Below are positions 34,590 to 57,716 of a stretch of 64,000 nucleotides of DNA, piece after piece; the first letter of the stretch is position 1; every line of letters begins with the position of its first letter. The notes under the pieces are model-generated. The model ran no database searches and was not told the DNA's origin. It saw only the letters and a list, made by a program, of their open reading frames with translations. A program made the position numbers and the translations under genes. The DNA is from Marsupella aquatica (lineage: Eukaryota > Plantae > Marchantiophyta). The stretch covers positions 9,722,184-9,786,183 of the forward strand of contig OZ316895.1 in the NCBI GenBank assembly GCA_973895155.1, given 5' to 3'.

Positions 34590-34615
34590 AACCCCAATTT
34601 AAGGAAAACCGAACT
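34590..34615 (+). repeat. Left terminal inverted repeat
   Basis: AACCCCAATTTAAGGAAAACCGAACT; 23/26 identity to the reverse complement of 57691-57716. Looser similarity (AATTCCAA..CTAAATATTAT) continues for about 40 bp inward. Confidence 0.9.
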
Positions 34616-34957
34616 TTGGAAATTCCAAAAATACCTAAATATTATTATTTTAATATGACAGCAATTGCCTGTCAACGCTTCCGATTACCACGCTTAAAAA
34701 ATGACAAGAAAAGGGGGCGACATGACGCGTCGCTGCGCGTGATACCCTGAAAATGACTGCAACATCACATTTTAACAACACTAAGATTTGACGCAATCCA
34801 ACTTGACGGGACCAACAGACAACGAATAATAAAAATAGAGAAATAAATCTTTGAGATCCTTTATATATGATAACCCGTTTAGGGAGATTACAAATAGTTT
34901 CTAGCACGACAATACCAATGGGGAGTTTCTCTTGCCGAATATTATTTCGGAAGCGTC

Positions 34958-35651
34958 CTAAACTGGGCGTCTGTTAAACTGCTCTACTAGATATCTATCT
35001 CCATGCCTCTGAATCAAAGGGTCTTCCCATATAGTATGATTATAATCATAATCTCTAAAAAGAGATTTAACTGACCAATCAGGATAACCTATTCCATTGG
35101 CAACGAGAAGCGGCTCAGAAGATTTTGCGAGCTTGCTAAGATACGGAATCAACACGTTAATCAGGAAACAGTCGTCGATCGACCCAAAATATTTGGGCGG
35201 AAATAATGATCCAAAAACAGGATCTAAACAAGCACGAAATGCATCGGATTCGATAAGCATTATATTTTTCTGCAGATACATCTCCGTATAACTTTCAACT
35301 TTATCAAAACACTTCAAAAATATCCGCTTATTTGAGGTCGCCCCATCGCATAAGTAACAATGAGACTCATCCCAAATATACTTAAATGAGGCCATTTCCA
35401 TCGCAGTAAAAATAGACGCTAAAATCTGATCTAAAAGGTTCTTCTTAACTAAGAGATGACCAGATCCCTACGTCGAAATTCTCAAAACAGAATCTCACAA
35501 ATTTGTGAAGCTAAGGCCTTGGAAAAACGTATACATTCCCAATACGAATTCCAGTTGAGACCACCATCAGTCGGGAATGCGGTGCAGTGTAACAGAGTAG
35601 ATGCTCCACATCTAAAACTATGAGCTGAGTTTCTCTGCTACAATGTATCTC
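34958..35651 (-). pseudogene. FCP1/SCP(NIF)-like HAD domain, copy 3 (one stop and one frameshift)
   Basis: After the acceptor at 35652 it reads QLIVLDVEHLL..VFPRP*LHKFVRFCFENFDVGIWSS, then FKYIWDESHC..IFLKCFDKV..NIMLIESD; collinear with copies 1 and 2. Confidence 0.75.
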
Positions 35652-35744
35652 CTGTAGAGAAACACAATACAAGATAAATGAGCCTGTGTGGATGTTGCCA
35701 CGTGAATAGTCGCGTCACGGATTTACAGACAAATAACATATCCT

Positions 35745-36452
35745 CTACACTCTGGCCTTTGATAAGTGACGTCTGTTGAAGTACTTCATAAGAACTTGAT
35801 CAGCATGTCTCTGCACGTACAGATGCTCCCATATATCTTCGTTCAAAGTCCAATCTAGATGTAGATTTCTAATCGACCAGATGGGATAATCCAACTTGTT
35901 AGCAAACGCAAGACAAAGCCCGGAATCTGATAGCTTCAGTAAATGTGGAATGAGAGTATCCCTAAAAAAGACATCATCCAAGGATCCTTGAAACGTCTTT
36001 GTAAACAACAATCCACATACACCTGTCTGGCATGTATGGGATGGACAGGCATCAATCTGGATTATATTCTCTAATCGATAATCTTGAAACATATCACGTA
36101 GTCTGTCCATAGATTTGAAGACAACTCTCTTATAACATTTCTTCACATAACCAAGATGCCAGCAATGATCTTGGGTGAAAACATATCTCAGTTGCGACAG
36201 GTCCGTGATCGACAACATTTCTGAAAGTATCTGATAAACCAGTTTATCCTCGAGGGTAGACCAAACCATCACATCAAAATTATCATAACAGAATTTTAGA
36301 AAATCATGAAGATATGGCCTCGGAACGACACATAGAGATCCGATAAGAATTGCCGTAGTCCACTTGAGCTCAGGAGTATATTTCTTAATATAGCATAGAA
36401 AGTTTTCCACTCCTAAAACTAGAAGTTGACGCGATTTGCTCCACTTAGTCTC
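35745..36452 (-). CDS. FCP1/SCP(NIF)-like HAD domain, copy 2 (open exon; catalytic Asp missing)
   Basis: After the acceptor at 36453 it reads QLLVLGVENFL..VVPRPYLHDFLKFCYDNFDVMVWST..VFTQDHC..VFKSMDRL..ENIIQID. Confidence 0.78.
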   Translation of the reverse strand, partial: ETKWSKSRQLLVLGVENFLCYIKKYTPELKWTTAILIGSLCVVPRPYLHDFLKFCYDNFDVMVWSTLEDKLVYQILSEMLSITDLSQLRYVFTQDHCWHLGYVKKCYKRVVFKSMDRLRDMFQDYRLENIIQIDACPSHTCQTGVCGLLFTKTFQGSLDDVFFRDTLIPHLLKLSDSGLCLAFANKLDYPIWSIRNLHLDWTLNEDIWEHLYVQRHADQVLMKYFNRRHLSKARV

Positions 36453-36722
36453 CTGTAAATCAACAATTCGATTCTCATATTAACCCCTAAACATAACACA
36501 CAAATTTTAAAAATATAAGTAAACGACGAATGTTTACCCGCGCACGGTCGCGTGACTAATGTATCCATAGTTCAATTCTCATATTATGCAATCAATTCAA
36601 CCACGCCACCCGACACGATACTCACATAACAATATAAATAAATCCACACAGCGACGCGACCGGGCGCGTCACTCACAACACAAAGTCAAAAGTATAAATA
36701 AGAATTATAAATAAATAAATGT

Positions 36723-39517
36723 TTACTTTTCTTTGGCTTCCATTTCACGGTCTTTCCTATCTGATAATATTCTCATGAAATCGTCAAACTCTCGTAAATG
36801 GTCAGGATTACCCTAAGTACGAATGGTCACATTTTTCCTCCAAAGATTCGCCTTATCAATATAATCCTTCTGAAGATTGTCTCGAGAAAACTCTGGAATA
36901 CCATATCCCCGAAGTCGCTCATGGAATTTCAACTTCGGATTGAACATATCGCACAGATACGGATATAGTTTTTTTTGAAAATGTGTGTCATCTTCCAGCC
37001 CAAAATACACGTCGGGATACACAGACGAGTAGAAGCTATTTAAGCTCGTCTTATAAGCAGCATCATCCATAATAATCACATTCTCCTTGTCGTAATTGTA
37101 AGTAGTGGGTAATTCCAAAAGCATGAAGAAACTAAAATTTTTAATTTTTTTTACGGTGTTTAGACTGCAATTATTGCTAACTGTAACTGAAACAACATTC
37201 AAAGTTACTAAGTTCCTAAGTTACGAGTAAACTCAGTTTACGAGTTTACTAGTTCACTGCTTTACGAGTTTACGAGTTACGCCTTAAGAGTTGGCGACCC
37301 TGTGATCGTGACATCTTACGACTAGTTCAACGTGACTCCACAATGGATGAAGAGCTCACCTTGAAAGGGAAGGAATGCAAAGACATAGGCGCTCATTACT
37401 GACTTCTCTTCCACCTTACCTCTCAAACTCTGGCCAACTTCAACCGGTACTTCAGAGATGTCAGATGGAGACTTCGACCTTTCTATTCCAGGATGATGAA
37501 TAGTGATAAGTTCCTGTATCATTATCCCCAAGTGTATGCTGCTACCTGTAACAACTATGATGTGATCGGGATGTACAGAGAAGCTCTTCGTATAGATTCA
37601 TGTTATTTGATGAAGAGAATGCCTTTGATGTATCCTGAGAGACAACTGAGGTGCCTACCTTACTCTAGAGGATTCCCACGCCAGGCTGAACTAATGGAAG
37701 TTACCCAGAATTGAACTGTCACGGCAGTGGAGCTACTCGAACCAGAAGACATCCGACAACAAGCTTGAGTAGTCTACGTCTTTTTAGTTAGTTTTAAGAG
37801 TAGTGCATCTTTCCCTATTTTTCAAAATGTGTTATAGAGCTGTAAAAGCTATGAGACTTCTTCAATAGGTAGTCTGTACCTAGGAAAACCTGCTGGCAAA
37901 ATTTCAGAGTTTTCCAGACCAAGAGTAGAAAGTTAAAAATAGTTGAATTTGCTCAGTTTTTAAGTGTACCGGAATACGCTTTTACGCTATACGTTTTTAC
38001 GTTTTTACGCTTTTAAGGGTTTACGGGTTCATACTTAGCCACTTTTCTAGCTTTTCACTTACTGAATTGCTATTTTGACTTTTTGAGGAGTATGAAGAGG
38101 CATGTCTCTTCGACCCTATGACCTCTCACTCTGTAGATTTTTACTATAAGACCTCTCCACCACTAGTGTAGTTTATGGTTAAGTTATACATTTTTGCCTC
38201 TTCTTTGTGTTAAACTAGTTGATCATGAATCTATGAGTTCGAGATCAGGTTTAACATTTGGAGAGACTTACCTCCTTCTTGTGTTTTTATCTATGATTAT
38301 AAACACAGGAAGTAAAATTCCTTTTGTGCAAATCTTTTGAGTTGTAATGACAGATTCCTTGTTGGTGACTCATTGCAATCTCTTGATTTCTTAAAGTTAA
38401 CTCATTGAGTTTAAGCCTTATTGAAATTGATGGATTTTCTTTCATGTTGCTTAGTACCATCTAAATGTTGAAGTAGTCACTCTTTTAGATCTTGTCTGAG
38501 TACCACTTAGAAAGAAAAGACAAGATGTGTTGACGGCATTTTAAAAGGTACTCTAGTAAGCATTTTAGAACTGAAAAGCAATATGGATTTGAATCCTTAA
38601 GTCTTTTCATTTTGACTTATGTCTAAGGAGCAACCTTGGTCAATTCCAGACTCCCTAAGTAGCATACTTTAAGATATTTTCTCTTGTGTTTTGTTAATCA
38701 TTCCTTTTTCATTAATTTATGTTTACATGATGCTGAGATATCATTGAAAACTACTCACCGCTGTGGAGCGATCTTCAAAATACCTTATTAAAGTAATCAA
38801 ACTTGATTACTATGTGTGGAAAACATTTTTAGTTCTTTATTATTGTTTAAATCTAGTAAACCAACCCCATCTTGTTCTTTACGGGAACGAATACCGAGTT
38901 TGAAGACCTATAAATGTGTTTTTGGTTCTTCATAGCAAACTACAATAATCCTTAATATCGGTGGCAATGTCGGAGAGACATTTGACAAATAGGGGAATGT
39001 CATTATTACTCTTACCAATAGGTCGTGTTGATTCTTGTCCCCAGATAAATTTAATATGGCTCAAAACCTCGGGTCGGAGAATCAGCCTTACACATGATAG
39101 AATATTTTGTTTCAACATACACGACCAAATGACAATGTCGTAAAGTTCTGACACCTTCACAAGAAATGTCATTAAGTCAGGCCTTGGATAGAAAACCTTG
39201 TGCATGTGTTTGACACCCCTTGACCGAATAGGCATCCCAGGGCTGCTTTGCTCTGACCAGATAAGTACCCGATTCAGGTCAAAAATTACAAGTCTCTTCA
39301 TTCGAATTACCGGACCTTTCTGTACCGGTGGCCTCTGCGCCGATGGATTAGGCGTCGTCTGTACCTGTGATTTCTGTGCCGAAGGATTTGGAGCCCGTAC
39401 TACCAAGGTCTTTCCCGCCTCCGGGAAATCAGCGGACTTCAGGATTGGTGCCTTCTTTACTGGTGCCTTCTTTATTGGTGCCTTCTTTACTTGATCAGGG
39501 GGTTTCGGGCTAGGTTC
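36723..39517 (-). pseudogene. FCP1/SCP(NIF)-like HAD domain, copy 1, split by a solo LTR; spliced to the Ulp1 exon
   Basis: KRLVIFDLNRVL..YPRPDLMTFL..YDIVIWS..IWGQES..LFVKCL..DIKDY joins in frame to DKENVIIMDDAAYK once the LTR and one TSD copy are removed. In-frame TAG at 36813-36815; the next stop is TAA at 36723-36725. Confidence 0.82.
37097..38944. mobile_element. Nested solo LTR (1848 bp)
   Basis: TGTA...TACA termini with flanks GTAAT/ATAAT (5-bp TSD, one mismatch). Removing it restores the HAD reading frame. Confidence 0.88.
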
Positions 39518-39603
39518 CTGTAAAACATTATAAAATGAAAAATAAGTTTTATAACGCGAACGGTCGCGTGACTATAAAGACAGACTGAAATGAAGTATAA
39601 TAC

Positions 39604-40395
39604 CTGCCCAAGAAGATGGTCGTTCAGCAATTGAATTCCGCCGGCAATGTCAATCATAGTAGCACGTATCCCGGTACCATGGTTGTCTCCGGACGCCGGC
39701 TTTCGGAAGTCCATGTCATATAACAACAAGACAACTTCCCTACGGAATTTTGCAATGTCTGCAGCGGAGAAACTAATTTCGCTGCCTTGGCACAAACACT
39801 TGGCGTATTTCAACGTAAAAACACCACAACTGTACCCGTCACTTTGGTATGGAATATCGTTCCGATATATCCGTTCCCAACCTGATATATCCACCTTGAC
39901 TCCATTTCTCCATAGAATTTTGTCGACGTAATACTGCCCAACGACATCGAGCACCTTAGGATTTTGTCGATTTTGAACTAGAGAATCCAGGTACTCGAAT
40001 CGTTTCTCCTTCGAATAGACAACTGCCAATGACCAATGTTCTTTCCCAACAATGTGAACTGGAAAGACTAGTTTTTCGTATTCATTGATTCTTAACGGAA
40101 AGTCAACTGTCCAAGATGCTCGGTCCTCATCAAAAACGGTAGGACCCATGGAGAGAAGCTCGAAATGGTGTGTTTGGAAGAATTTTACAACCTCTGATTT
40201 TCCAACTCTATTGAGAATCAACTCGATAAAGCTCAAATAAACATTAATTATATCATTGGTAAGCAACTCGCGCGGTCTCAAACACATCATATGTTTCCTC
40301 TTGATCGATTGGTGTAAAAACTTGGTCAATACCTCTTCCATATCCCTAGAAGGATCGAGGCATTGATCTATTTGACTACCCAAATTTTCAAAAAA
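39604..40395 (-). CDS. Ulp1/SENP-type (peptidase C48) SUMO-protease exon
   Basis: LRPRELLTNDIINVYL, LVFPVHIVGKEHWSLAVV (His), EYLDSL (Asp) and YQSDGYSCGVFTLKYA (Gln, Cys). Bounded by an AG acceptor at 40396 and a GT donor at 39603. Confidence 0.92.
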
Positions 40396-40579
40396 CTGCA
40401 AAAAATAGAGAATTCAATACGCCTTCAAATAACGTACTAAGGTTGTAGCCTACGAGTAAACAGAAACAACAATAAATCAATAATAAAATATAATGACAGG
40501 TCCAAAATCCTAACGACAAAGAAAATACTAGCTGCTAGACTAGAAACAAAATCCTTTCAACTTATAGCTTGCGAATGAC

Positions 40580-42604
40580 CTTTGGATTGGGTGGATCCGG
40601 CCTTTTTGCACCGGATTTCTTGGGTGCCTCCTTCGCAGCTATATTGCTAGGAGCTCCCCGGGAGCGCAGTGATCGATCCACCAAACCGGTTTGTGAAGGT
40701 TGGAGAGATGAGGCGGGAAGACCTTCGAATGGTTGTGGTAGTTTATTTAGGTATTTGACCATCTGTGAGTCTGACAAATCAGGTTCCGCAATATCCACTT
40801 CGCTAGTCTCCGGTTGGGCTTCCGAGTGTGTCGTCTCTGGGTTATATCATGGCCGAGACCACGAACCCGGTCGTGTGAAGTCAGACTTTAGTCTCTTCAC
40901 AGTTTGAGCGGATTCAGAAGCCAACTCCGTTCCCAGTTCTTCCACTCGATTCTCACAAAATCGTACATTATTGGTAATTATCTCTAGTCTCGATTCACTT
41001 GCACTCGTCTCCTCTGTAATCAGAACACCCTTCCAGTAATGCACAGCCAAAACTGCCTGGACACGTAGCAGCTCGGGTGAATATTTATTCCAATCCTCCA
41101 AGGAGACTGTACCTAATGGTGGATCGTCAAACTCAAAGTCCGGACGCAGAAAATAGTCTAATATTTTCTTCTTAATTCCAGCGGACGGCGACGAAGGCTT
41201 CCTCAAATTGAGCTTTATTTTAGGTAATCAGTTTGCCTCAGGAATAAGCGAAAGGGCCCTGGCCTTCTCGGCCTCCTTCTTTGCCTCCTGCTTCTCCGCT
41301 TGTTCCTCCTTCTCCGCCTGCTCCTCCTTCTTCTCGGCCTCCTTCTTCTCAGCCTCTTTCTTCTCAACCTCTTTCTTCTTTGCCTTCTCAGCCTCTTTCT
41401 TCTCTGCCTCCTTCTTAGCCTTCTCAGCCTCCTTCTCAACCTCCTTCTTCTCAGCCTCTTTCTTCTCAGCCTGCTCTTTCTTCTCAGCCTCCTTCTCGGC
41501 CTCCTTCTTCTCGGCCTGCTCCTTCTTCTCGGCCTCCTTCTTCTCGGCCTTCTCAGCCTCTTTCTTCTCTGCCTTCTCAGCCTCTTTCTTCTCTGCCTTC
41601 TCAGCCTCTTTCTTCTCAGCCTAGCTCCTTCTTCTCGGCCTGCTCCTTCTTCTTGGCCTCCTTCTTCTCAGCCTCCTTCATCTTCTCCTTCGTCTTCTTG
41701 GCCTCCTTCGTCTTCTCGGCCTCCTTTTTCTTTTCGGCCGCCTTCTTCTTGTCGGCCGCCTTCTTCTTCTCGGCCGCCTTCTTTTTTTCGGCCTCTTTCT
41801 TTTTGACCTCCTTCTTTTCAGCCTCCTTCTTTTTGGCCTCCATCCTTGCCTGCGCCCTCTCCGCTTCCGCCCTCTCCGCCTCCTCCCTCTCTGCCTTCAT
41901 ATTCTGTGACTCTTCTCTCTCCTCCTCCTCGCTCTCGGCCTCCTTTCTTGTGGGTTCCTCCTCCTCGCTCTCGACCTCCTATCTTGTCGGTTCCTCCTCC
42001 CCGCTCTCAGCCTCCTGTCTTGTCAGTTCCTCCTCCCCGCTCTCAGCCTCCTCTCTTGTTTGGCCCTGCCTCCTATCCTCATCCACCCTGTCGGCCACTT
42101 CTCTCTCTGCTTCAACCGCGGCCTGGACTCTCGCTACCTCTGCCAATGCCTCTGCCTGAAGTTTGGCTGTCTCAACTCTCTCCGCTTCAGCTCTTGACTT
42201 CCTCTTTGCGGTAGCTGCCTTTTGAGCTGCCGCCTTCTGCTTCTTGGCTTCTACCTTTTGAGTCTCTTGTCGGGACGCTTCTAGTGTAAGTGCTTCTTCT
42301 CGGGCCTCCTCTTGTCTCACCGCTTCTAGCCGGGCCGCCTCCTCCTGTCTGGCCTCATCATCCACATCCTCCATGTCTTCGCCGGACCCTGTTGTATCCT
42401 CGTCAGTCCCCTCGTCAAATTTATCAACTTGCTGATATTCATCAATTTCATCGGCTTCCTCATTGTCACTCTCTTTTTTGATTTGGTCATCATCATCGAC
42501 ATCGTTCTGCGGCTCGGTCATCCAATCTGGATCTTGGTCGTCATTGACGTCCCCATGCCTGTCGTTCACTTTGTCCTCACCAGTAAAGCCACTTTGGACT
42601 TCAT
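40580..42604 (-). pseudogene. Acidic plus K/E/A-rich coiled-coil exon of the cargo gene, disrupted
   Basis: A D/E-rich stretch, then many AEKKE/AEK repeats. In-frame stops at 41979, 41228 and 40847, and a 1-nt insertion near 41622 (GAGCTAGGCT versus the repeat unit GAGCAGGCT). Confidence 0.75.
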
Positions 42605-42999
42605 CTGACAAAAATAAAATATATAAATAAATATAATACACAGTAAAAACAATGTTCACGCGTATGTTTGCGTGAAGCTCAACAATGTTTTGTTATGTAG
42701 AAGAAGAAATTGTTTAGGGTTTGATAGAAATTTACCTTGGATGGCCCACGAGGGTACTCTGTTGGCCAAATGTACATTCTATCTGAATCTTCCGAGAGGG
42801 AATACTCTTGCAACAATTGATAACAAATATGATCAGGAATATGTTGTTCTTGGAGGACTTCCAAAACATCAGCCTTGAGAGCAGATATGGATGGACTTCA
42901 TTAGTTTATCTATACATTTTTCTGTACTAGCCCGTACTGGGTCAATCAACGACAGCGTTGTATCATTCATCGCAGTGGTGTGTTGTAGGAAACAAGACA

Positions 43000-44462
43000 A
43001 TTCCCCGTGCGTTGTTACGGGGCAGTAATATTTTACATTGGATCCAGCATCCTGTAAAATAAGAAACAGAAATTAGTTTGACCAATATAAATTGATAGTT
43101 CAAAATCCAAATCATCTGAAAAGCTAAACCCCACAATGTAAATCTAAGAACTTACCATTAGGCACTGGATCAAATTCTTTCCTTCGTCGAAGCATATAGC
43201 CCATTCTCCAGATTGGACGAATTGACTAACAATACTTTCAAAGAATGGAGGCATCTTTTCTGGCGAAGTCGTCGATATCTCGCCGCTCTCTTCAAAATCA
43301 ATTATTTTCTCAATCCGATATTTGGACAGCAATTGGAGCTCAAAGACATCCGAGTCGCCCATTGTGCTGAAGGCCGAGATGTGAAAGGCGTATGTTACAA
43401 TAAGCTTCCTTTCCTTTTGCCGCTTCTGAATATAATTGCTATCCACAGCAATGTACTGTGTGTATTTCACTAATTCCCGTTTGATTAAATAAGACTCAAT
43501 GGGAGTGGCCACAATAATAACCACATGGTGTGGTTTAGCCCCTATTTTGCTAGTAGCACGGAATAACCCCTCATAGAATGCGCAATTTGACGGACGCATC
43601 GCTCCCATTGATGAGGAATCAAAATAAATCAAGCTTGCAAGGTTCTTCTCTTCACGTACGTGATACAGTCTGCAAACCCAACATTTTGTATATCCTACAG
43701 GGATCGAAATATCAGCCTCTCACCGACCGGCCGCACTAGTTGGTTTCCTTGACTATCAACTGATTTCTGTATTCCTTCCACCAACCTGTAGAATATCGGG
43801 TCGATCTCTTTCAACAAATTATCATTACTAATATTTACATTTAAGCACTTCTTCAGATAACCACTCAGCGCATCTCTCAGCTGCTTCAGTACCATCTTGT
43901 TGAGCTTAAAGCAATCAATCATTCCTTGGACCCGCAATTTCCGGGCGGCGTTGGTAAGACTTTTCAGCTCGGCCCGGGTGCCTGTATCCCCGTTGAGTTT
44001 ACTCAACAAAAGAATCTCAAACTCAACTTTTGTCTTCTTCTCTACACAGAATTCCTCCAAACTCCTGCCGCTTGTTGACATCACTAGGGCTTCAGAGGAC
44101 TTCCTAGCCTTCACGGATTTCACTTTGATGCTTCTGTTTTTGAGAATAGACAATTTCCCACTCAACATGTACTCCGCTGTCTTTCGAAGAACTTTGTCCG
44201 AGCACCCTTGACAAGAACGGAATGACTTCTTAAGAAGATGAAAAGCATTTGGATTCTTCGCAACCTTGAGGATCTTCTTCTGCAAAATTCCATTGTATAT
44301 AACAAGCTCTCCTTTCCTTGAAAGTTCATAAACTTCCATCCACTTCTTGAATGTTTCGTCCTCCATGGTAAAGAGGAACGGAGCCAACTCTCCAAATTTC
44401 ATTACCTCGTTTTTGCCCATTTGCACCCATGGGCAGACTAAACTTGTAGCCCTCATAAATAC
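43000..44462 (-). pseudogene. Central cargo exons, including a degenerate amino(N6A/N4C)-methyltransferase-like region
   Basis: ORFs 43695-44489 and 43144-43632, with GT-AG introns 44463-44628 and 43052-43155 in frame. LASLIYFD...EKMPPFFESIVSQFVQSGEWAICFDEG..CLMDAGSNV follows beta-class MTase motif order but lacks DPPY and FxGxG. Confidence 0.45.
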
Positions 44463-44628
44463 CTGGAAAATGAGATAACAAAGGAGCATAACAATTCTAA
44501 GATTGACGCGCCCAGTTGCGTGACAAAATTAACTTCATAAATCTGTAAGAAAATGTAATGCATATATCTGTAAGACAATGTAATGCATAAATCTGTAAGA
44601 ATATAATCGACAAGGGTTTGGTCCATAC

Positions 44629-45830
44629 CTTCCAATTAGGATGACGAGAATGTGATCCAGGCCGACCAAATGAGTTCCATATATTACGACACTGTCTGAC
44701 GATGGTGAGAAATTGCCCCTCTTCCATGGATGTTTGATGACAGTGGTTTAGGGCCCTTGATAGTCCCATCAAATGTATATTATTCTCGTTATTGAGCGTT
44801 GCCCAAAACATGACAGCTTCTACTGTCCTGCATGCATCTCGAACATCTTGGCTGACATTAGCGTCGTCTTTCAGCAATTTGTAGGCCATTATTGTGTGTT
44901 GGCCTCCGAGTATCCAAAAATGACTTCTCTTAATGTCCTCCTCTGTTGGCGCTGATTTGTAGGCCGTTCCATTGTAGTCAGCAATTTCGTCGGCTTCAGA
45001 CTGAACCCACTTTATAGGGACTAAGAAGCAGCATCTCTTCTCAAACTTTATAGTTGAATGAGAAAGGAGTGAATTCTTCAGCCTCTCAGTGTAATCCTGA
45101 TTCCACTCTCGGCATTTGATGTGATCTGGTGCTGTTAAATATGTTCACAACACTATATTCCTTGAGGAAACTATCGAACAGAGCACCGACATTCTGTGCG
45201 GTGATAACTTTTGGAAGATTCTCCGCCGTGTATGTTTCAGCCTCGGTCACTGGAATGGGCTTTCCCAAGCGAAATTCCTTCTTGAAAGGAATTCTCTTGA
45301 ACTCAAGGACGTCAATAATATATTGACAAATCAAATCACCAGTTAATCCCCGTGGATTGGAGGGGTATCCCACACTAGTAACCTTTTCCAAGGTGTGTCT
45401 AGCACCTAGGAGATCATCGATTCTCCTCTGATTGAAGGTCACATATTGCGTGCGATCCAAATATATGCTGATGTTGTCATCTTGGTTATCGTCGCTGACT
45501 AACAGAACCAATCCCTCAGTACACTCTTGAACACTCAAGTTCTTCTCAAAGAAGCACCCAAGAATTTTTGAATTCTCCAAAATTGTAGCCTTCTCATTTT
45601 TTGCAACCACAAGACGGAGACTCCCATTCTGAACAATTATTCCAAGTTTGGTTATCTCTGTCGAGTCAAAGAGATGGAGTGTCTTTGTCTCCGTTGTTCT
45701 CTCCCTGATAGATCTTCCTCGATAAGCAAGAATGGATGTCTCCGTGGGCATCACTCTGGTCTTGGCTTTCTTTTGAGCAACCGATTTAGAGGAGTCTCTT
45801 TTTCGCTTTGATGTCACCATTGGATCCATT
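44629..45830 (-). pseudogene. Cargo exon with a basic NLS-like start and a ParB/Sulfiredoxin-like domain (1-nt frameshift near 45116)
   Basis: Starts with SKRKR..KKAK. Correcting one extra A joins ORF 45086-45829 to an open frame reading HQCREWNQDYTERLKNSLL..FLVPI..FWILGGQHTIMAYKLL..LSRALN. Confidence 0.6.
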
Positions 45831-46635: not shown

Positions 46636-46756
46636 ACCTTTCGACTAGAAGAAGTCGCTCTTCTTCATCTAAATAGTCATATCTGTCACTAAATAATAAC
46701 ACGTCGCCGCAACTAGTAGTCCCAAGAATGGGTATTTCTAGGAGCAGAGAGATATC

Positions 46757-47161
46757 CTATCGAATAACTCGATAGACTGAGTCAAATTCCAAATCCTCAG
46801 TCTCGGGTATGTAGGAAAGTGCGTCATTTGCGTTATCGACCATCCGATTTGCTTGTTTTAGGCTAGCCCATAACTTGGTATTCGTAACTAGAAAGTCCCA
46901 CTTCTTGCTACACGCTCCAAGCCGGATAAGGTCTCGGACCCGAGCCACAACCAAATCGTTTTTGGTAAGTCGATATCTACTCAATCCTTGAATTGAAATA
47001 AAGTATTCGTATAATATTGGCCATATTCTCGAAATGACCAAAACATCTGGTAATCCTCCTATGAGACTAGAGGAGGTTTTATCGAGCATGTCCCAGATAT
47101 CTTTCTGTTCCCTTTCATGAGATGAAAGAAAATCTTGAGCCAGATTGAGGAGTTCGCTCAT
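46757..47161 (-). pseudogene. F-box-like repeat 2 (the TAG at 46757 looks premature)
   Basis: LIGGLPDVLVISRIWPIL...LIRLGACSKKWDFLV. Paralogous sequence (KYPFLG; FSDRYDYLDEEER) continues beyond the stop. Confidence 0.68.
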
Positions 47162-47222
47162 CCTGTTGTTATCAAATCACAAAACATTGTTAGAAGTTGT
47201 CTCACGCGCCCGGTCACGTATG

Positions 47223-47771
47223 TTAACAACTAGCATTTAGGTCATCCTCAAGGTACCCAACTTTGTGGCATCTTATTGTAAACTGCCATTTTTCAACTGG
47301 GTGAAGAGCATCGTAGGTCTTCGTAAATAGTTCTCTAAGAACGCTGGACATCGACCCCAGGAATTTAATTCTTGGGTATTTCTTGAAGAAACTTTGCACA
47401 GTCGATGAGAGAGACTCATTTGGGATCGATTTAGCAGTATGTCTTGGGAAATCTAAATCTAATAAACTCAACTTGATTATACCCAATAGATAGGTATTAC
47501 CAACAAGGTGGCGCCATCTGCAACACATCGAAGATAGTCCAATCAACTCATTCAATTCCTTTGTTGAGAAATTTCCTGCATTAGCCAAGCAATTAAAAGA
47601 ATCCTTGATTCGAGGCCAAATCAATTCCGCGACAATGTTATCTGGAAGTCCAGGTAATAGTGTCTCAACAAAGACAGAATATCCCTCCATTAGGCCATCT
47701 TGGGTTTTGTCGAGAATGTCAAATATGGGGCAGAGATATTTGAAGCTCTCAAGACCAGGTTCCCCCATCAA
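47223..47771 (-). CDS. F-box-like repeat 1
   Basis: LLPGLPDNIVAELIWPRI...LIGLSSMCCRWRHLV. Confidence 0.7.
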   Translation of the reverse strand: MMGEPGLESFKYLCPIFDILDKTQDGLMEGYSVFVETLLPGLPDNIVAELIWPRIKDSFNCLANAGNFSTKELNELIGLSSMCCRWRHLVGNTYLLGIIKLSLLDLDFPRHTAKSIPNESLSSTVQSFFKKYPRIKFLGSMSSVLRELFTKTYDALHPVEKWQFTIRCHKVGYLEDDLNASC

Positions 47772-48033
47772 TGAACCTCTATTTTGATTTGTGATGCGAC
47801 TGGTCGCGTCAAATAATCAAAACGTTTCCTTCGGTCACGGAACTAACTATAAGAGGTCTAACGGGCATGCGACTGGTCGCGTTAACTGCACCTAACATGC
47901 GACTAGTCGCGTCACCTAATCCTCGGAAATCTCTAAACCTCCCGTGTGGAGATCTACCTCACACGCAACTGGTCGCGTCAAAAGATAATCCAAAATTGAT
48001 CGAACAACAAACCAGGAGTAGTCACAATATCGA

Positions 48034-50708
48034 TTGATACCTGTACGGACTGATAAATCCAAATGCGAACATGGAATTATTAAAGTGAGATACATTCATG
48101 CAAAGATATATTTATTAACTGGATTCAGGCAGACCAGTATTGAGTGTATTCATTTAGATAACAGGCGATCAATGGGATTCATTCATAATTATAAGCAATC
48201 ATAACATTCATGAAGTTTCCAATATTACTATTCAGATGTTAGCACGCTATGATTGTGAAACAATCATATGTCAGAAGTTTTCATATTGCAAAGAATTCAG
48301 TTTAGCATGATTCACAGAGCATCGGTCAGTTAAAATTATTAAATTGTACAGGTTGCTGCTGGTTGTTGAGTCGATTGATATGATTCAGTGTAATATAATA
48401 AGATGAGTCAATTGCACAGCCTGGAAGTTGTATGACATCGTTAATATGATCAGGTTATATTTGAGTTGGCTTGTATGATTCAGTCATATTTGAGTTTACA
48501 GACATAAACTGCATCAAACTCAGCTTAATGATCTGTAGAATGATCTCAGGAAAAGTACCTGAATTCTGACAAATTGATCGATGTAATTGATCGATGTAAT
48601 CGTCTGAGAGATAGAAATTAATTTCCACTTAAAGACCTTGCTGCGGCATTCCAGAAAGAACGTATAAGATTGAAATCCCATATTGATGTATTAAAGATAG
48701 AAGCTAAGCGAATATCTCGAGGTAAACAGTTCTTCCACTAAAATTGCAATCAAGGCGGCAAGGAACTCACGATCTCGAGGTAAACAGCCACTTCTAGAGA
48801 TAGAATCATACGCTGTCGGTAGAATGTTGAGAATGAATTAAAGCATAAACCTGATCAATGAAAGAGCTGAAACAAACTTGATGAATGAAACGATCTGAGA
48901 CAGGCTGCCGAAAATGAGTTCGAGCTGCTGGAACAAGCTAAAATTTGCTGGTACAAGCTGATACGAGCTTATACGAGCTGATACAAGCTGAACACGAGCT
49001 GAAACTCTCGCAACTTCAGAGCTCCAAACAAACAAGTTGTGACGAACCCAAGAAGCCCTTCGAACAAACCAGAAGCCCTTCAATTGAGCAAACAAGAAGT
49101 GAATATGAGATGTGAGATCGAGCTGAAGCGCGCCAACCACCTCCGGACCACAACAAATGAGAGCTCCTGACCACAATGAACGATCGAGCTTCGGACCACA
49201 ATGAATGAATGATCGAGCTCCTGACCACAATGACCGAGCTACAACAAACGAAATGGGGCGAACGAGAGCAGGCACGTGAAGGTCCTATGGAGCTGGCGCG
49301 GGAGACAACAACAATGAACGAGAGAAATGACAAGAAGTGAACAACAATGAACTCGAGACCGTGTGCGCCGTCACTAAGTAATGCGAATTAGGATAACCAT
49401 TTTAACATAACCCTAATAAGCCTACACATCCTACGGATCAAAAGGTTCCGGATGATCTCCGTACACCTTCCTAAGACTCAATCAGTACGAAGTAGGCAAT
49501 CGTGAAAAGAAGATTACCGGAATCTTCTTGATTGGCCGTACTCAACGAGATTTTAGTTGGATCGCCAATTTGAAATTTAAACCGGTAATTATGCAGTTGC
49601 GATAGATTTTGGTAGTGGAGACCCCCGGATCCGGATCCATATCTCCACTCTCTACATCATGCCAATTCAAATTTGAGTATCGAGCCAATTGAAATCCAAA
49701 CTCCTGGATAACGTAAAAAGATTCTCACGATCGGAGTGAATCGATATTCAAAATCAATCCATTTTGGAAGTGGACAATACCAGATCCGTATGTCCACTCG
49801 CACGTTGAATAGCAACTCAATTCAAAACTCAAGAAAGTATCGTGCCAAATCCTAATTCCTGAACAACATACAATGATTCTCACGACTGGAGATTGAATCA
49901 ATTTTCAAAATCAAAACCAATCCAGATGAACACATCCTTCATGGAGTCAGACTACTCTCATCGTTCACGGATCATTCTTCATTTTCAGTTTCTCCTGACT
50001 AGCGGAACTCTCAACGGACGCTGATCCAAGGAAAATTTGAGGTGGAGCTCATTGGATCATTCGACCATTCCAGCCAGGGCGGGGCTCATGCAAGCAACTC
50101 AGGCGCAGTTCATTGTATGACATTCTAGGGAAGGGCTCAACCGACCCTAGCGTAGGAGTTCTGGCGGAAGCGAGACGACAAAGTTATAGGATCTCTATAG
50201 TCATCCTCGCTTATTCGGAGCATTCTAGTGGACCAACAAAGAGCGGCTAGTTAGAAGGCACTTTCTGTTCGAGGATTTTGATCTCGATACGATCAAGAAG
50301 CTTTTATTTTCTGGTTGAGGCATTCGGTCTGGATACAATCACGATACTCAAGGCAATTGGAGTCCGACGGAAGGTTTGCGAGGAGCAGGAGGCTTGGCTG
50401 GGAGGAGGGTTATCGCCATAATTGCTGACGAAGACAACACGCAACTGAACATCTTGTAAGTACGCAATTCCGCAATCAATGACGAGATTAATTGCCTTCA
50501 ATCACGCATTTAATTCATGATTTGACTCCATGAAGTTCTGGTCGAATTCAATCACTCCTCAATCAAGTCCAATCCAGAAGAAATCTATCACCATGAATTC
50601 CTTCTATGAAGTACTATGGTAGTCGTCGATCAAAATGAAATCTTCGCAGTCCAAACTAGTGTGTCTTCCAATTTTACATGGTGGTACATATGGGTATTTT
50701 AACATACA
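48034..50708. mobile_element. Probable nested insertion (~2.7 kb, LTR-like, non-coding)
   Basis: Flanked by ATCGA direct repeats (48029-48033, 50709-50713); begins TTGATACC and ends ATACA. Has internal GAGCT-rich low-complexity repeats and lacks the dyad motif that clusters on both sides. Confidence 0.55.
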
Positions 50709-51439
50709 ATCGACTCTAGCGAATTAGCCATAATTTACTTTTATATTGAAAGTCTTCGTTTCATCACGCGCCTAGTCGCGTGATTGTTTTAGAGGAGAGG
50801 ATATACTCTCCACTCTTAAATCTAATCGCGCTCCATTTCTGAGATCCGATTAATCTCTATTTATTAGTTACTTTACTTAGTCATTGAGTAGAACTCCACG
50901 CGCACAGTCGCGTGACATAACTGACCTCAGGTCAAATTCTCTCAAGAATTGAAGCCAATATCTGTTCGTTTACCGCCTTGTTTGGGGATGACGGGCACGT
51001 TCCCCATTCTGGTTGACTGACCACGCGCACAGTCGCGTCATTCTTCCTGCTGTATTCTAAGGTAATATAGATGTAGTATAGTATCACTCAAGCCTCTGTT
51101 ATTTTGATCATTAGGAAAAGACTCTCAGCCCTAGGTGGTCTAAACTGACTTCATTCAGATGAACCTAATTATTCCAGACGCTAGTAAACATGCAAGGCAT
51201 TCCAAACATACATACATGGAGCACTATTCATGGATTTAATACCCAATCTTGTTCACAGTGCACGCGCACAGTCGCGTCAAAATTATTGTTGTCTTCTAAG
51301 GTAATTTAGATATAGGATCGAATCACTCCAGTCTTAGCGGTTCTCGTTGTTGACTAAGAAGCCATCTTGAGAATCATTTCAACAAGAATTCACTTCATTC
51401 AAATGACTTGAATTATAGTAGAAGCCAGAAAACATAAAT

Positions 51440-52217
51440 GACCATTCTGGAATATTTTTTCGTCGATTACCAAAAAAGACTACATCCATCCCGAAGGACT
51501 TCGAATGTGGAATCCATTTCCATTGAACTGATTCCGTTAAAATATATCCCTACGGGATTAAATCTAGCTACATCGTATCCCTACCGAGTTCTAACTTGGA
51601 CTACGTTTTACTCAAATTCAATAAGCTCTAGCCTTACATCGAGTCAATCATTCCACGAAGATGGCATCCACTCATCCGTGTCTGGCGTGGATTCGCCAGA
51701 ATCCAAGAATGCCTCCTTTGCCCAAGCTCTATGGTCCATAAATTTGCGTGCGTTGCTCGGCTTCCTCCTTCTGTAATACAGTTCACAATCTTCCTTCATC
51801 TCTAATTTCCTTTTTGTAGTTGCGTCCACGTTCTTGGCCTCCTTCTTGACTTTCTTAGCATCAGCTGCTGCCTTGACCGTAATAGAATCGACGCGTACTT
51901 TGGCCTTCAACTTTTCCCCGGATTCCATCTTTGGATTCGACACGGTTGGATTGCTCTCCATCTTATCTTCCGTCATCAAATGTGGCGAACAGTGGGTTCT
52001 CACAAAAAATTTGACCTCTAGATGTAGTCACCGCAAACATGATATCACATCGCTTACACAATCTGAAAGGAGTACCACGATAGATAGAATCTTCTGCATT
52101 GTCTGTTGGAACATCCACATTCTTCAAGCTCACCGGCTTAGCCATCCCTTCAAGCAAGAGATGCGGACCGAGACTAAGAATTTGGAGTGAGAGGAAAGAC
52201 TCTTCTATTGGGAGCAA
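51440..52217 (-). pseudogene. Decayed first ORF/exon of the leftward cargo unit
   Basis: Overlapping ORFs 51963-52217 (CKRC..C) and 51644-52003 (K-rich) run on into stop-interrupted coding-like sequence. No family recognised. Confidence 0.4.
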
Positions 52218-52344
52218 AGGAAGGGAGAGCTGATGTGCGATTACATTATCCAGTAACCAGAATGTTCAATGCATGGGGAATGGGCAGTTTAGACATCATC
52301 TCAATGCTTTATAGTCTTTACTCTTCACTACTGTGGATATTGTC

Positions 52345-52527
52345 AATTAAGTGGCATGAATGTAGGGCGGAATCTAGGTTGGTTTCTAGAAGAGAGTAAT
52401 CATCTATCAATTCAGTGGCACGGATGTAGCGCGGCATGTAGGATGGTTCTACAATAGAATAACCGTGTGTCAATTAAATGGCACGAATATAGGGCGGAAT
52501 CTAGGGTGGTTTCTCGAAGAGAGTAAA
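52345..52527. repeat. Three diverged ~60-bp tandem repeats in the divergent spacer of the transposon
   Basis: CAATT(A/C)A(G/A)TGGCA..(A/G)AT(G/A)TAG(G/C)GCGG..T(C/G)TAGG.TGGTT occurs three times. Confidence 0.75.
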
Positions 52528-52714
52528 CGTCAGACTGGCGCGGAATAGAATTGGCTGCAAGCTAAATTGTCGTATAATTATGGCTTTAATTTCACTGTCG
52601 GCGACTGGCCCGGAATGTACTGATTGTTAGTGATGTACTGGAATGATTATGGGGTTCTCAGTAGATACTGACTGTCGAGTGTCCACTCAGTGGTACTGTC
52701 CACTCAGTGGTGTA

Positions 52715-53322
52715 TCTTATTATAAATTGCAATCATATCTTACTTATGAATCGCCAACTACGAGCTAGAGTTTGGGCCTAAGCTTCTAGCTTCTAGGTTT
52801 TAGACCCTATGGGAAATAGGAATCTATAATGTTGAATCGGTCATGGGCTAGCCTAAGGGTGTCCCACACATTTTCAGGCTGTGTCCACCCGAACCTAACT
52901 CGGGCGACTGCAAAACTCTCCCGGCCCGATATTTGAGTCCCCCAATAGGAAAACCACTTCACGCACAGCGCCGCAACACAACTCATTGCTAACTACCCCA
53001 GCAAATATTGGCCCGAGTATACCTAGTTTCGGCTGCCCATAAGGTCAGATTTTTCCCCATATCTGAGACGCCCTAATAATGCTTGTGAAGAGGTCAGTCG
53101 TGTCATTGAGGGTCTCCCCCGTGTCTTTGGCAAGGGCCTCCCACTCCCGTGCCTTCATTATGGACCCCCCCTTGGGATATATATTTTTGAGCGATGCGTC
53201 GCCCTCCCCTCGGTCCCGATGCGCTCGCTCCTTCCTCTCGCCCTCCGCTCCATAAATGGCCTGGCCCGACTCCTTATGGGCCGGCCCTCCTTGCACCCTA
53301 CAACGCACGAGTATAGGGCTTG
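52715..53322 (+). mobile_element. Nested non-autonomous Helitron-like element
   Basis: Starts A|TCTTATTATA (less certain) and ends ...CAACGCACGAGTATAGGGCTTG|T. The 3' ~75 bp match the reverse complement of 13066-13140. Confidence 0.58.
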
Positions 53323-53518
53323 TTCCACAATAGAATGTTACGGAAGAAGCATGACGCGACTGGTCGCGTAATGGATTGGTTCATACGGCTACTAAGTCCT
53401 CAAGAAGCATCACGCGACAGGTCGCGTGCAGTACTTTGTCCTTACTTTGGTAGTTGACGGCCGTGACAGGACAGCACGCTTATAGTCATATTCGCTATTG
53501 TGCAGGATCATAATTAGT

Positions 53519-56500
53519 ATGGTGACATCGACAGTCTGGATCAGGGAAGGCGGACAAGTTATTATAGGCATCCGTGAAAAACAAGTTGGAAAAGGTCGTG
53601 TGATAAGTCTTGATCCTTCCAGGGTTTGTCACAATGTCACATAGTTCTTCTTCTATTGGAGGAAGTTTTTGACGAGACTATTCAATGCCGAGATGGCAAA
53701 CTTTTGAAGGACATGATTGGGGGCTACCTTGTATGGGAAAGGAATCAACTTTTTCAAGCTCCCATGGAATCGGAGGATTTGTTTGGCGAGGTTGGTGATG
53801 ATCAAGATCCAGTTGAGAAAAATTATGTTGGGAACCACCATAATGAGAGTCGGTCTCGTGTGGAAATAGTTTTACCAAAGGCCTTGTGGATGGGCATGCC
53901 TATAAAGGTGGTGGATGAGAACAAGTTGATTTTTGCAGTGGCAACTATACATGTTCTAGATCCTATAGTCAAGCTTGGGGATGTCACCCTTGGGAATACA
54001 CATGTGGGAATTCTGATCAACAATTTTGTTGAGGGAGCTACGGTTGACCATCTGAAGCATAGAGATTGCTTAAAAGCTTGGTCGATAGACCAACTCATTG
54101 CCAAGGATGGCAACTTGTTGTCTTTCCACAACATTAGGCAAGAAGTGGGAGGGAACACATCTCCTACAAGTGGAAAGCGGTCCTACGTCCATAAAACTAG
54201 AAAAAGAAAGAGTCCATCTTCCCAGACATCTAGAAGAGACACATCTCTGGCACGTCAAGATGTGTTGTTGATAAACACAAAGGACTGTTGTAGTGAACAT
54301 TGTTGCCAATATTTGGACCGCAACTTGGCTATGGCAATTAGGCAAAAGTGGTGGTCAAAATCTTTTGCGGAGCGCAAGGAGGAGGAGGAAATCAAGGCTA
54401 TAAAAAATACAATACACTTGGGTACGGGCAAAAGGATTCTAGTAGTGGAGGGCAAAGTATTGTGCTTGGAGGCATGGAGAATCATTCATTCAAGAGGAAA
54501 GACTCAATTTTATGCCTTGAAGACGACTATGATGGCTGGAATGAACATAGGTACCCATGGTAATGCTGGAAAAAGGCGTATGTCTGAGAAAGTATCTCAA
54601 GCATTCATGTCAATGAAAGAGATTATTGAGGAGGCAGCTGATCATCATCCAGCCAAGTTGAGAACCATGGTAGATAATTCAAGGGTGGATTTGAGGGAAT
54701 TGCCAACCAATCTTACTTGGGAGAATATTATAAACAGGGTTAATGTTGGCAACAAGGAGGCTGGTCTTCCTCCAATTTCCCAACCCACCTTGAGTCATCT
54801 ACATCAGATGTATTTCAGGGAGTTCTTGCGTCACAAAAAGGGCAACAACTTTTCAAAGTGTACAACTTGTAGTGAGTTGCTTCAACGGAAAGCAAACCTT
54901 ACAGGAGCTAAGGAAGAGTTAGATTGCCTAAGGCGTGATGAGGAGGAACATCACCAAGACCACACACAACAAAGAATGTGCTATCATACCTGGAGATATG
55001 AGTCCATCCATCGTCCAAAGGAAGTGTTATGCCTTATTCATGATAAGATGGATCATTCAAAGACATCTCTCCCAAGAATGCCCTTCAATCCTAAGCATGT
55101 GGATGGTGCCCAAAAGTTCCCAATTACTGTCACTGGTATCCTTACTCATGGTCATGGTCCCAAGGCCATAGCCCAATATCATGTTGGAGTGTGGCCAGGT
55201 GATGTCAACGTCACTATTGGGTCAATTGATTCAATACTAAGGATGTTGGAAAACCCAAATCTAATGATCAAATCTCTTGTGGAGGGGCCAGACTCGACAA
55301 GTCTTTTAATTTAAAGACCTCCTTTTTGGGAGAAAAGATATCTTGGAGGCAAGTGTCCTTAGAGCATTTGAGGATGACATTGCCTACATCTCAAGCCTAG
55401 GTACTTTACTCACAATCCTTTTATTATTAATAATATAAGCTCACACACACTAACACTCTACTTTATGTAGTTGTTGCTCCTCCTAGCCAAGGTTTCATTA
55501 ATAGGATTTAAACCCTAAACCCTAAATTGGGGTTTAGGGTCTGACTAGGGTTTTATTTAAAAGCATTCTGAGATTGTTACATTGTGATGCAGCACCCGAG
55601 GCACCAAAGTTCAGGCCCCTTCCACGAGTATTGAAGCTACAACTGGATAATTGTGCCTCAGACAACAAGAACAGATATACGATGGTTTATTTGTCATTGT
55701 TGACGGCAAGGGAGGTGTTTGAAGAGGTTCATCTTGGTTTTATGGTGGTTGGGCATACTCATGAGGACGTTGATGGTATGTTTGGGCATTTTTTAGAGTC
55801 TATGATGCATAACCCCACATACTCATTGCCTGAGTTAATGTCCTTGTTCATGAGAGCAAGGACACCCAATGTAGTCCCACATTTTCTACAGGAGGTCCCA
55901 GATTTCAAAAACTACTTAGCTCCATTCATGTTGAAGGGCCTTGAGGCATTGGTGGGGCATTTAAAACCCAGGCTGTTTAGGTTCTATGTTCGTCATGATA
56001 GTATGCCATGCTTCCAATACAAAATGAAGTCAACTGATCAGGGATGGTTACCCAAGGAAGGTATTGAAATGTGGTCATGGAAAGATGACAAAAGTCCTCA
56101 CATCCCAATTGGGGTGCCCAAACGGCTACCAATGATGGAGTTGAAAATGCTTCCTGAAGTGCTGACAGGGTTGAAGAAGCATGTGTCATTCTTTGAGTTT
56201 ATTCTAAAGCGAACAAAAGAGGAAGAACCAAAGTGACGTTGGACAACTCTCATCAATTATTGGAATGACATTGTAGATACTCTACAGGGTGAGCAGGTGC
56301 AATATGAACCTGAAGGTGCACACAACTTGGAATACGGGTTTTGGCCTTTATCAATATGGAGAGAGCACGTTCCACCAGAATATCAAAATGTGGCATGTGA
56401 GTTGGAGGCAACAATGGATTATGTGGGACCAGCAAAAGATAAACCTTCTGAGAGTTTTAACCCTAGGGTTGATGTTGTGAAGGGCTGTTATGTGTTGGTA

Positions 56501-56881
56501 CGGCCGGACGACTCAAACCTGGATGTTTATCCCGTCCATATGGGGTTAGTTGTTACAGATGTGGTAGAAGGACCAGTGAATGAACAAAACCTTCTTACTC
56601 ATGTATGTGGCGTTGAGTGGTTTAGACCATTTATGGCAAAGAAGCAACGTGGTCAATCAAACTGGTAGCCAAGAGAGCGGTGGGCAGATTCTTGGGATAA
56701 AAAATGTGAACGTGATCCAACTCCAATATACAAGGAAGCTAAGACAATAGATGTTTCCTCTGCCTTGTGGTGTTTCAAAGCACGCAAAGGACCAGTGACA
56801 GGGCTGGTAGGAATTCCAAAGAATGTTGCTGCCAAGGCAAGAGACTATCTCTTGACATGCATAGCAAGTGACAAATCCTAG
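53519..56881 (+). pseudogene. Sola1/DUF7869-type DDD transposase (about 1,050 codons reconstructed; intron 55401-55592)
   Basis: Cys-rich DCCSEHC..VLCLEAW, then FSKCTTC..H, CLIHDKMD (D1), LQLDNCASDNKN (D2) and FMVVGHTHEDVDGMFG (D3). Frameshifts near 53640 and 55309; in-frame stops at 56234 (TGA) and 56666 (TAG); final TAG at 56879-56881. Confidence 0.87.
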
Positions 56882-56976
56882 ACAATAATGAAGCATGTAG
56901 TTTAGCATACAGTTTAAAAGGCAACTCAGAATAGTAGTAGCCAGAGAACTCAAGTTTAGACAAGTCTTATCGTCTA

Positions 56977-57499
56977 AGTTAGTTAGTTGGTTAGTTTATT
57001 TAAGATATAATATTAGTTAGTGGGGCCTTAGTTTGGTGATATTAAGGCATGATATTATTGACATTCAAATGAATGTCCAGTAGACATTGTAATATACAAC
57101 AATCCTATTAATAAATAATAATTATAGTTACACCTTCAAGTGAACTCAACTTTCAATGATTTCTGATTTGATATGGTTCCATGCCTGATTGAGTCAAAGC
57201 AATAGAAACTAACTAATTAAAGGGTGATATGATTGTAGGTCACGCACCCTGGTGCGTGTCAATCTTTTTTTGTATTCAACCCTATAGTAATTAAATAGAC
57301 AAGTTAGTTAGTTGGTTAGTTTATTTAAGATATAATATTAGTTAGATAGTGGGGCCTTAGTTTGGTGATATTAAGGCATGATATTATTGACATTCAAATG
57401 AATGTCTAGTAGACATTGTAATATACAACAATCCTATTAATTGTTGTAAAGAGTGGTCAATCTTTTTTGTATTCAACCCTATAGCAATTAAATAGACAA
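56977..57499. repeat. Internal duplications in the transposon's right arm
   Basis: A ~135-bp block TTAGTTAGTTGGTTAG...CAATCCTATTAAT at about 56979-57112 and 57304-57441. A ~43-bp block GTCAATCTTTTTTGTATTCAACCCTATAG.AATTAAATAGACAA at about 57258 and 57456. Confidence 0.85.
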
Positions 57500-57690
57500 T
57501 TGAAACAATGAATGACAGTTTAATTAAGGATTTGTGCATGGATCAAGAGGTACTTGATGTCATTTAGTGATGCATTGTTATAAAGATCTTGCAACAAAAC
57601 ATTTGAAGTTTTTGACTATCCCACCAAATGTTAAAGAGGTTGATCATTCATTAACTTATAATATTTAGATAAAATTGGAATTAATCTAAT

Positions 57691-57716
57691 ACTTCAGTAT
57701 TCCTTAAATTGGGGTT
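57691..57716 (-). repeat. Right terminal inverted repeat
   Basis: ACTTCAGTATTCCTTAAATTGGGGTT, followed by ATAT. Confidence 0.9.

Follow-up and report, generated by a model that had tools for sequence, protein, structure and literature searches.

Does a giant DNA transposon of the liverwort Marsupella aquatica carry, besides a transposase, a system of its own by which it would stay expressed? The question is raised by a stretch of 64,000 nucleotides (64 kb; hereafter the window) of contig OZ316895.1, assembly GCA_973895155.1 (positions 9,722,184 to 9,786,183 of the forward strand), in which a 23,127-bp element was delimited at 34590-57716, with a transposase gene towards its right end and a set of accessory genes, or cargo, towards its left end. 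Our reading, which is drawn from sequence and for which we see roughly even chances, is that a repeated, giant cut-and-paste transposon, likely of the Sola1 type, is present here as a dead copy, and that palindromes scattered through it may be read by its own ParB-like accessory protein, which would bring a SUMO protease together with a NIF module and so keep the element expressed.

Palindromes, CpG content and element boundaries

The central observation is a 16-bp palindrome, ACGCGAC-NN-GTCGCGT, which with up to three mismatches allowed occurs 19 times inside the element and 0 times in its 41 kb of flanks, in comparison to a mean of 0.18 and a maximum of 2 copies in 100 dinucleotide shuffles. 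The copies start at 34715, 34725, 35700, 36538, 36654, 39554, 44506, 46005, 47204, 47794, 47867, 47897, 47963, 50766, 50898, 51023, 51262, 53354 and 53412, so that the series begins 125 bp in from the left end and closes shortly before the transposase, with none in the terminal inverted repeats (TIRs) or in the last 4.3 kb. All 19 fall in non-coding DNA, which makes up about 44% of the element by our approximate gene models, and two introns of the giant gene described below are among their locations. The CpG observed/expected ratio, calculated with the motifs masked, was 0.81 in the cargo versus 0.31 in the transposase (p ~3e-7), and bins across 34.6-53.5 kb ranged from 0.46 to 1.11 in comparison to 0.14 to 0.41 for bins past the last motif. 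The motif-bearing part of the element has retained its CpGs, and the motif-free transposase has lost them. Such retention is the long-term footprint to be expected if the accessory protein keeps the element expressed.

As to the boundaries, AACCCCAATTTAAGGAA is present at 34590-34606 (+) and 57700-57716 (-) with 0 mismatches, giving 17-bp perfect TIRs whose inverted similarity continues imperfectly to about 60 bp, and the end-to-end alignment covers 63 nt at 82.5% identity (E 7e-9). ATAT adjoins both termini, at 34586-34589 and 57717-57720; it is palindromic, so that a single copy cannot tell target-site duplication (TSD) from TIR, and the border between the two was placed by analogy with the AACC terminus of the Ectocarpus element Sola1-1_Ec32. 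Because 7 of 20 shuffled versions of the window also contained a 17-nt perfect inverted pair, the boundary call rests on the 63-nt alignment, the break in read depth at the right end and the confinement of the palindromes. The features of the element are as follows, in window coordinates:

34586..34589, no strand: left TSD ATAT, 4 bp, identical to 57717-57720
34590..34645 (+): left TIR, 17 bp perfect, imperfect to ~56 bp (terminal alignment)
34715..53427, no strand: the 19 dispersed palindromes, in introns or spacers
34961..35663 (-): NIF/HAD-like gene 3, degenerate, interrupted by a stop and lacking a DxD motif (E 1e-41 in tblastn with the paralogue at 35748-36479)
35748..36479 (-): NIF/HAD-like gene 2, degenerate, likewise lacking a DxD motif (PF03031 E 9.5e-10; TIGR02245 E 7e-7)
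36816..39517 (-): NIF/HAD domain (DLN motif), likely the end of the giant gene, split by a nested insert (PF03031)
37095..38944, no strand: nested insert of ~1.85 kb with TG...CA ends and ATTAT/ATTAC flanks (junction sequence)
39603..40385 (-): Ulp1/C48 SUMO-protease domain (PF02902 E 3e-21; SENP1 E 4e-17)
40560..42604 (-): linker of the giant gene, acidic and then made of Lys/Glu/Ala (KKEAE) repeats, interrupted by stops and frameshifts
42737..44462 (-): middle exons of the giant gene (GT-AG introns 44628-44463 and 43155-43052)
44629..45829 (-): giant gene, exon 1, predicted to encode a PH-like domain followed by a ParB/DUF3723-like one (FWILGGQHT); the frame is broken near 45130
46033-46644, 46760-47176 and 47226-47816 (-): three tandem F-box-like genes (mutual tblastn E 1e-4 to 3e-13)
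47817..53519, no strand: divergent spacer with motif clusters and tandem repeats (0 of 16 open reading frames, ORFs, match Pfam)
53520..56900 (+): broken DDD transposase with IHDKMD, LQLDNCASDNKN and GHTHEDVD motifs, CxxC before the core, one intron at ~55390-55470 (DUF7869 E 9e-36)
57658..57716 (-): right TIR (terminal alignment; depth drops to single-locus level across it)
57717..57720, no strand: right TSD ATAT (junction contigs 57693-58165, 0 differences in runs X1 and X2)

Read depth was obtained by comparing contigs from four of 12 sequencing runs with 45500-59000, and the depth data therefore cover the right half of the element only. Contigs crossing the right junction (57693-58165) had a depth of 19.7 in X1 and 27.4 in X2, in comparison to 698-729 (X1) and 1103-1454 (X2) for single contigs over the transposase, or about 35-50 times the junction depth; summed contig depth is no copy number, and the ratio is taken simply as tens of copies. 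The right half is thus repeated, in roughly tens of copies, and the repetition stops at the right TIR. The cargo bins at 45.5-47.7 kb were also deep (205-665 in X1), depth drops over the interval 47.7-52.7 kb, and deep contigs carrying indel variants extend across the spacer. The right junction was identical in X1, X2 and X3 (two studies), with no empty site among them. One 572-nt contig of X3 (57705-58165) is identical to the final 12 bases of the TIR and to the right flank, its first 111 letters being foreign to the element, and it may represent a different form of the end at this site. Near the right end, a direct duplication of about 140 nt (96%) at 56976-57499 shows joint variants among copies; to the right of the element, 58286-58622 is an extreme high-copy repeat with many loose ends (summed depth ~119,000 in X1 versus 20 at the junction), and it has an inverted relative at 60082-60428.

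Transposase and cargo genes

The transposase matches DUF7869, which we take to be the Sola transposase domain, and 2842 representatives match this type of transposase at E<=0.001. Its three Asp motifs are conserved in long homologues, forming a DDD triad, and its first half has four close relatives at 50-60% identity. Four additional bases near 55306, which are absent from the deep contigs of 3 of the 4 runs, a stop codon (56234-56236) and a shift of frame close to 56665 interrupt the coding sequence, and because of them the copy is dead and non-autonomous, being unable to move alone. No Pfam match to a Mutator-like (MULE) transposase was found in the element, and a TnpA-like identity considered for the transposase N-terminus gained no support from Pfam. 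Two further observations concern this region: a telomere-like AAACCCT hairpin at 55505-55540, just past the transposase intron, holds a 14/17 match to the TIR, and an inverted GC-rich stretch of 83 nt (82%) is common to 53241-53323, upstream of the transposase, and 13065-13147 in the flank.

The cargo runs on the minus strand from 47.8 kb to 34.96 kb, about 13 kb, divergent from the transposase. The exons for the PH-like domain, the ParB-like domain, the repeats, Ulp1 and NIF would, as we infer, belong to one giant gene. Five relatives of its first exon were found, and two of them (P0157 and P0158) are open across the frameshift near 45130. In an AlphaFold2 (AF2) model of P0157 built from 7 sequences, residues 21-180 reached a predicted local distance difference test (pLDDT) score of ~80 and resemble PH/PTB folds with middling Z of 4.2-5.5, while the remainder was unconfident, with the ParB-like part below 50; a single-sequence model gave pLDDT 35, and Foldseek returned no match at E<=0.001. 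The ParB-like domain was assigned through Atlas clusters (DUF3723 0.96/0.95, ParB_N 0.92), and hhalign placed FWILGGQHT on the ParB GxxR motif with E 0.11, 0 of 50 column shuffles as good and a probability of 0.5%. Further along the gene, a methyltransferase remnant suspected by eye at 43.7-43.1 kb gained no support, since hhalign against 16 beta-class enzymes gave a probability of 0.1% and 46 of 60 shuffles did equally well; the query being single and decayed, a more remote remnant may have escaped. Atlas gave no usable match for 43147-43692.

The Ulp1 domain, which an intron separates from the NIF domain, has the His-Asp-Cys triad and the oxyanion Gln of C48 proteases by alignment with SENP1. 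The NIF domain is recognized in two pieces, of which 38933-39571 matches PF03031 profile positions 2-108 (E 1.9e-7) and 36816-37220 matches positions 88-153 (E 0.026), and the insert between them, without a Pfam match, is likely a solo long terminal repeat judging by its ends. The DxDxT/V motif of catalytic FCP1/SCP phosphatases is replaced by DLNRV in the first NIF domain and by GVENF and DVEHL in the others. The F-box matches are weak (PF00646 20.0 bits against a cut-off of 20.5; PF12937 E 0.003). In this copy the cargo is broken except for the F-box-like genes and one NIF gene. A pair of small minus-strand ORFs in the spacer (51647-52265) with one stop between them, Cys-containing and then Lys-rich, is repeated in the contigs, has no Pfam match and is possibly a further accessory gene.

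These results agree with the architecture given in a preliminary description of this DNA, which had claimed a delimited 23-kb element with 17-bp perfect TIRs, an ATAT TSD, a single DDD transposase of about 3.4 kb and about 13 kb of divergently oriented cargo. In the analysis the cargo gave Ulp1 (E 3e-21), NIF and weak F-box matches. The right end is now supported by the break in read depth, and the element's limits by the 63-nt alignment and the motif confinement; the transposase proved to be broken, the ATAT is palindromic and a single instance, and the inventory had omitted the palindrome array and the ParB-like domain.

Elsewhere in the window, an intact intronless host gene for 6-phosphogluconate dehydrogenase, in keeping with a plant host, lies at 20396-21916 (+) (PF00393 E 5e-126), and a reverse transcriptase fragment with broken ORFs adjoining lies at 7837-8958 (-) (PF00078 E 2e-29), which is probably a decayed retroelement. 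Nested long inverted repeats at 25891-26172 (53 nt at 92%, 26 nt at 96%) form a hairpin like that of a miniature inverted-repeat transposable element.

Related loci and known systems

The search for relatives gave 80 transposase loci, 53 of them non-redundant and 51 long enough for a palindrome scan. Eight of the 51 carry 4-12 copies of a palindrome, in about six different sequences and mostly just upstream of the transposase; shuffles gave at most 2 copies. Words of the GTGGCCAC type occur at least four times in 13 of the 53 loci, a count made with no shuffle control. Six loci have their own 20-22-bp palindrome with A/T-run flanks, often at a spacing of ~70-80 bp upstream of the gene:

L003, 4726-5401
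L004, 5-548
L007, 28-886
L010, 5-143
L011, 3797-4710
L014, 1113-1623

NIF-like sequences were found in 1 of the 80 loci by tblastn (L017) and in 3 of 80 by hidden Markov model at iE<0.05 (L017, L025, L066), and the 131 ORFs of the related loci gave one weak NIF match (L079) and otherwise host or other-transposon domains. At L017, the NIF-like ORF (2101-2514, -) is upstream of and divergent from the related transposase, as in the window. The 17-mer of the TIR was found in 0 of 102 related loci, and AACC...GGTT termini with a 4-bp duplication in 0 of the 80 transposase loci; inverted pairs in L011 and L017 were discarded as element ends, having no flanking duplication and resembling other repeats. 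A giant-virus origin was also looked into and gained no support, 0 of 208 viral-contig pattern matches being confirmed.

The element is likely a member of Sola1, an indirect assignment made from its AWWT-type TSD, the AACC termini shared with Sola1-1_Ec32 and the DDD motifs. The AWWT TSD is given as a hallmark of Sola1 (PMC3845634) and is given for Sola2 too (PMC3627910), and the Sola1-like assignment of the preliminary description stands on the TSD, the termini and the DDD motifs, with the qualification that AWWT is not unique to Sola1. Sola1-1_Ec32 is described as an element of ~21.5 kb with a 4-bp TSD, AACCG...CGGTT termini and nested insertions, its best match being the moss element Sola1-1_PPa (PMC12477816). 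Our element resembles it in size, in a probable 4-bp TSD, in the AACC start (AACCC...GGGTT here), in an opposite-strand ParB-like accessory gene and in nested insertions. It differs in that the accessory protein of Sola1-1_Ec32 is a ParB plus N4C/N6A methyltransferase of 1104 amino acids, in comparison to a predicted Ulp1 plus NIF end here with F-box-like and extra NIF genes adjoining, in the length of the TIR (282 bp versus ~60 bp here) and in the palindrome array, none being mentioned in the available part of that description (PMC12477816).

Plavaka elements of Bostrychia are likewise giant DNA transposons with a ParB-like accessory gene, PAG3, and nearby inverted-repeat arrays, and PAG3 was proposed to bind and modify its own DNA; they differ in having an EnSpm/CACTA transposase, 2-oxoglutarate (2OG)-oxygenase and methylase-SET effectors, a red algal host, and tandem arrays rather than dispersed copies (bioRxiv 10.1101/2025.02.11.637652). 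The VANC/KIU genes of VANDAL elements offer another likeness, with family-specific motifs in introns or spacers, as found here, and a low-complexity accessory protein that sometimes carries Ulp1 (PMC5735166, PMC13317346); VANC causes local CG hypomethylation (PMC5735166). VANDAL elements differ by a Mutator transposase, the lack of TIRs and non-palindromic motifs of 8-9 bp, and the function is proven for VANC and inferred here (PMC5735166); a VANC domain was not detected in the element. Sola2-Fanzor chimeras share with our element a Sola transposon with passenger genes, short TIRs and AWWT TSDs, which the ATAT here fits, and differ in their Fanzor nuclease cargo, amoebozoan hosts and smaller size (PMC3627910). 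We counted as parallels for our reading the ParB gene of Sola1-1_Ec32, the ParB and inverted repeats of Plavaka, the VANC motifs and the Ulp1 in VANC/KIU.

The preliminary description had also held that Ulp1 is a recurrent passenger of Mutator-like and other large DNA transposons, which accords with the common capture in plant DNA transposons reported in PMC13317346, and that the cargo combination is not known as a described system. The latter holds in part, since our searches of the journal literature (not Repbase/Dfam) found no publication on a Sola element of plants that has Ulp1, NIF or F-box genes or palindromes, and yet a giant Sola1 whose accessory gene lies on the opposite strand has been published (PMC12477816). 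Giant ParB-carrying Sola1 elements are thus already known, and the Ulp1/NIF/F-box cargo was not found in the literature searched.

Competing explanations and proposed function

Several results weigh against the reading of an element with its own palindrome reader. Genes for Ulp1, F-box or ParB-like proteins were found in 0 of the 80 related loci, whose contigs are short or decayed, even though several of these carry palindromes upstream; likewise, the short contigs show no linkage of cargo and transposase in other copies. The ParB-like region has no match in Pfam, NCBIfam, PHROGs, PADLOC, PDB sequences or phages, its signature is GGQHT instead of GxxR, and its model stays below pLDDT 50. In addition, the single-gene model spans stops and is based on GT-AG borders without RNA, the palindrome consensus was derived from the same window sequence, and the CpG retention of the cargo may instead reflect a younger or CpG-rich origin, or codon use.

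Some of these points would fit a different reader, in which the palindromes are bound by the transposase through duplicated N-terminal domains, as a promoter activator or an end bridge, and the cargo is separate. The clustering of related-locus palindromes just upstream of a transposase, with no ParB-like gene found there, is consistent with it, and transposases (AtMu1) and TnpA are reported to activate their own families in a sequence-specific manner (bioRxiv 10.64898/2026.08.24.746577). We nevertheless regard transposase binding, the strongest of the competing explanations, as unlikely, if worth serious weight, with the motif missing from both TIRs and the last 4.3 kb, present in introns of the cargo as far as 17 kb away from the transposase, and dispersed in a manner unlike the terminal clusters of Spm (bioRxiv 10.64898/2026.08.24.746577). 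Quite improbable, in our judgement, is a passively captured (Pack-type) cargo of host or foreign origin, whose motif would be a host-factor site or a by-product of tandem duplication with no reader encoded by the element. The F-box-like and NIF genes are indeed tandem paralogues with the motif before each, Ulp1 capture is common in plant DNA transposons (PMC13317346), and all cargo genes are broken here save the F-box-like ones and one NIF. However, tandem duplication leaves unexplained the motifs that sit within introns, close to the left end and ahead of the transposase; the 41 kb of flanks hold 0 copies and different families have different palindromes; and relatives with an open frame, at 36-59% identity, exist for the first cargo exon, which is therefore an old conserved transposon gene.

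There is also the case of a chance composite, a short Sola element beside a separate cargo repeat with a coincidental left inverted repeat, for which the left boundary outside the read-depth coverage, the frequency of a 17-nt inverted pair in shuffles (7 of 20), the depth drop at 47.7-52.7 kb and the unequal CpG content of the halves could be cited. The 63-nt end alignment with matching ATAT, the spread of a single motif, which begins 125 bp in from the left end and stops at the transposase promoter, the deep contigs with indel variants over the spacer, and a layout and size matching Sola1-1_Ec32 (PMC12477816) make such a composite very improbable.

Under the reading of an element-encoded palindrome reader, intact sister copies would be cut at the TIRs and insert at AT-rich 4-bp targets. 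The giant accessory protein, as a dimer, would bind the palindromes via its ParB-like region and deliver the Ulp1 domain, which would take SUMO off chromatin or silencing proteins, and would also bring the NIF/HAD module to the element, while the F-box-like and extra NIF genes, without catalytic or canonical residues, may act as decoys or adaptors. The outcome would be a family-specific anti-silencing, VANC-like in its working with unrelated proteins. A wider proposal, tentative and on the doubtful side, is that a third, independent anti-silencing system with sequence specificity operates in the giant Sola1 elements of early land plants. In it, a clamp derived from ParB would read a parS-like palindrome and move along the element with a SUMO protease and a pseudo-phosphatase on board, with F-box-like decoys as a backing, and motif and reader would co-diversify by family.

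The strategy was previously proposed for algal transposons and shown for flowering-plant transposons of other kinds. To our knowledge, protection of the own family from silencing has been shown only for VANDAL and Spm-type factors, and we know of no test of the ParB-like accessory genes noticed in algal giant transposons. The element supplies a candidate 16-bp site, a candidate reader and an Ulp1 effector that looks catalytic; its CpG footprint follows the motif, and its sister families have palindromes of their own, all of which makes the hypothesis directly testable. If true, it would mean a new modular DNA-targeting system in plants, which on the wider proposal would be a programmable de-repressor of plant chromatin with bacterial ancestry.

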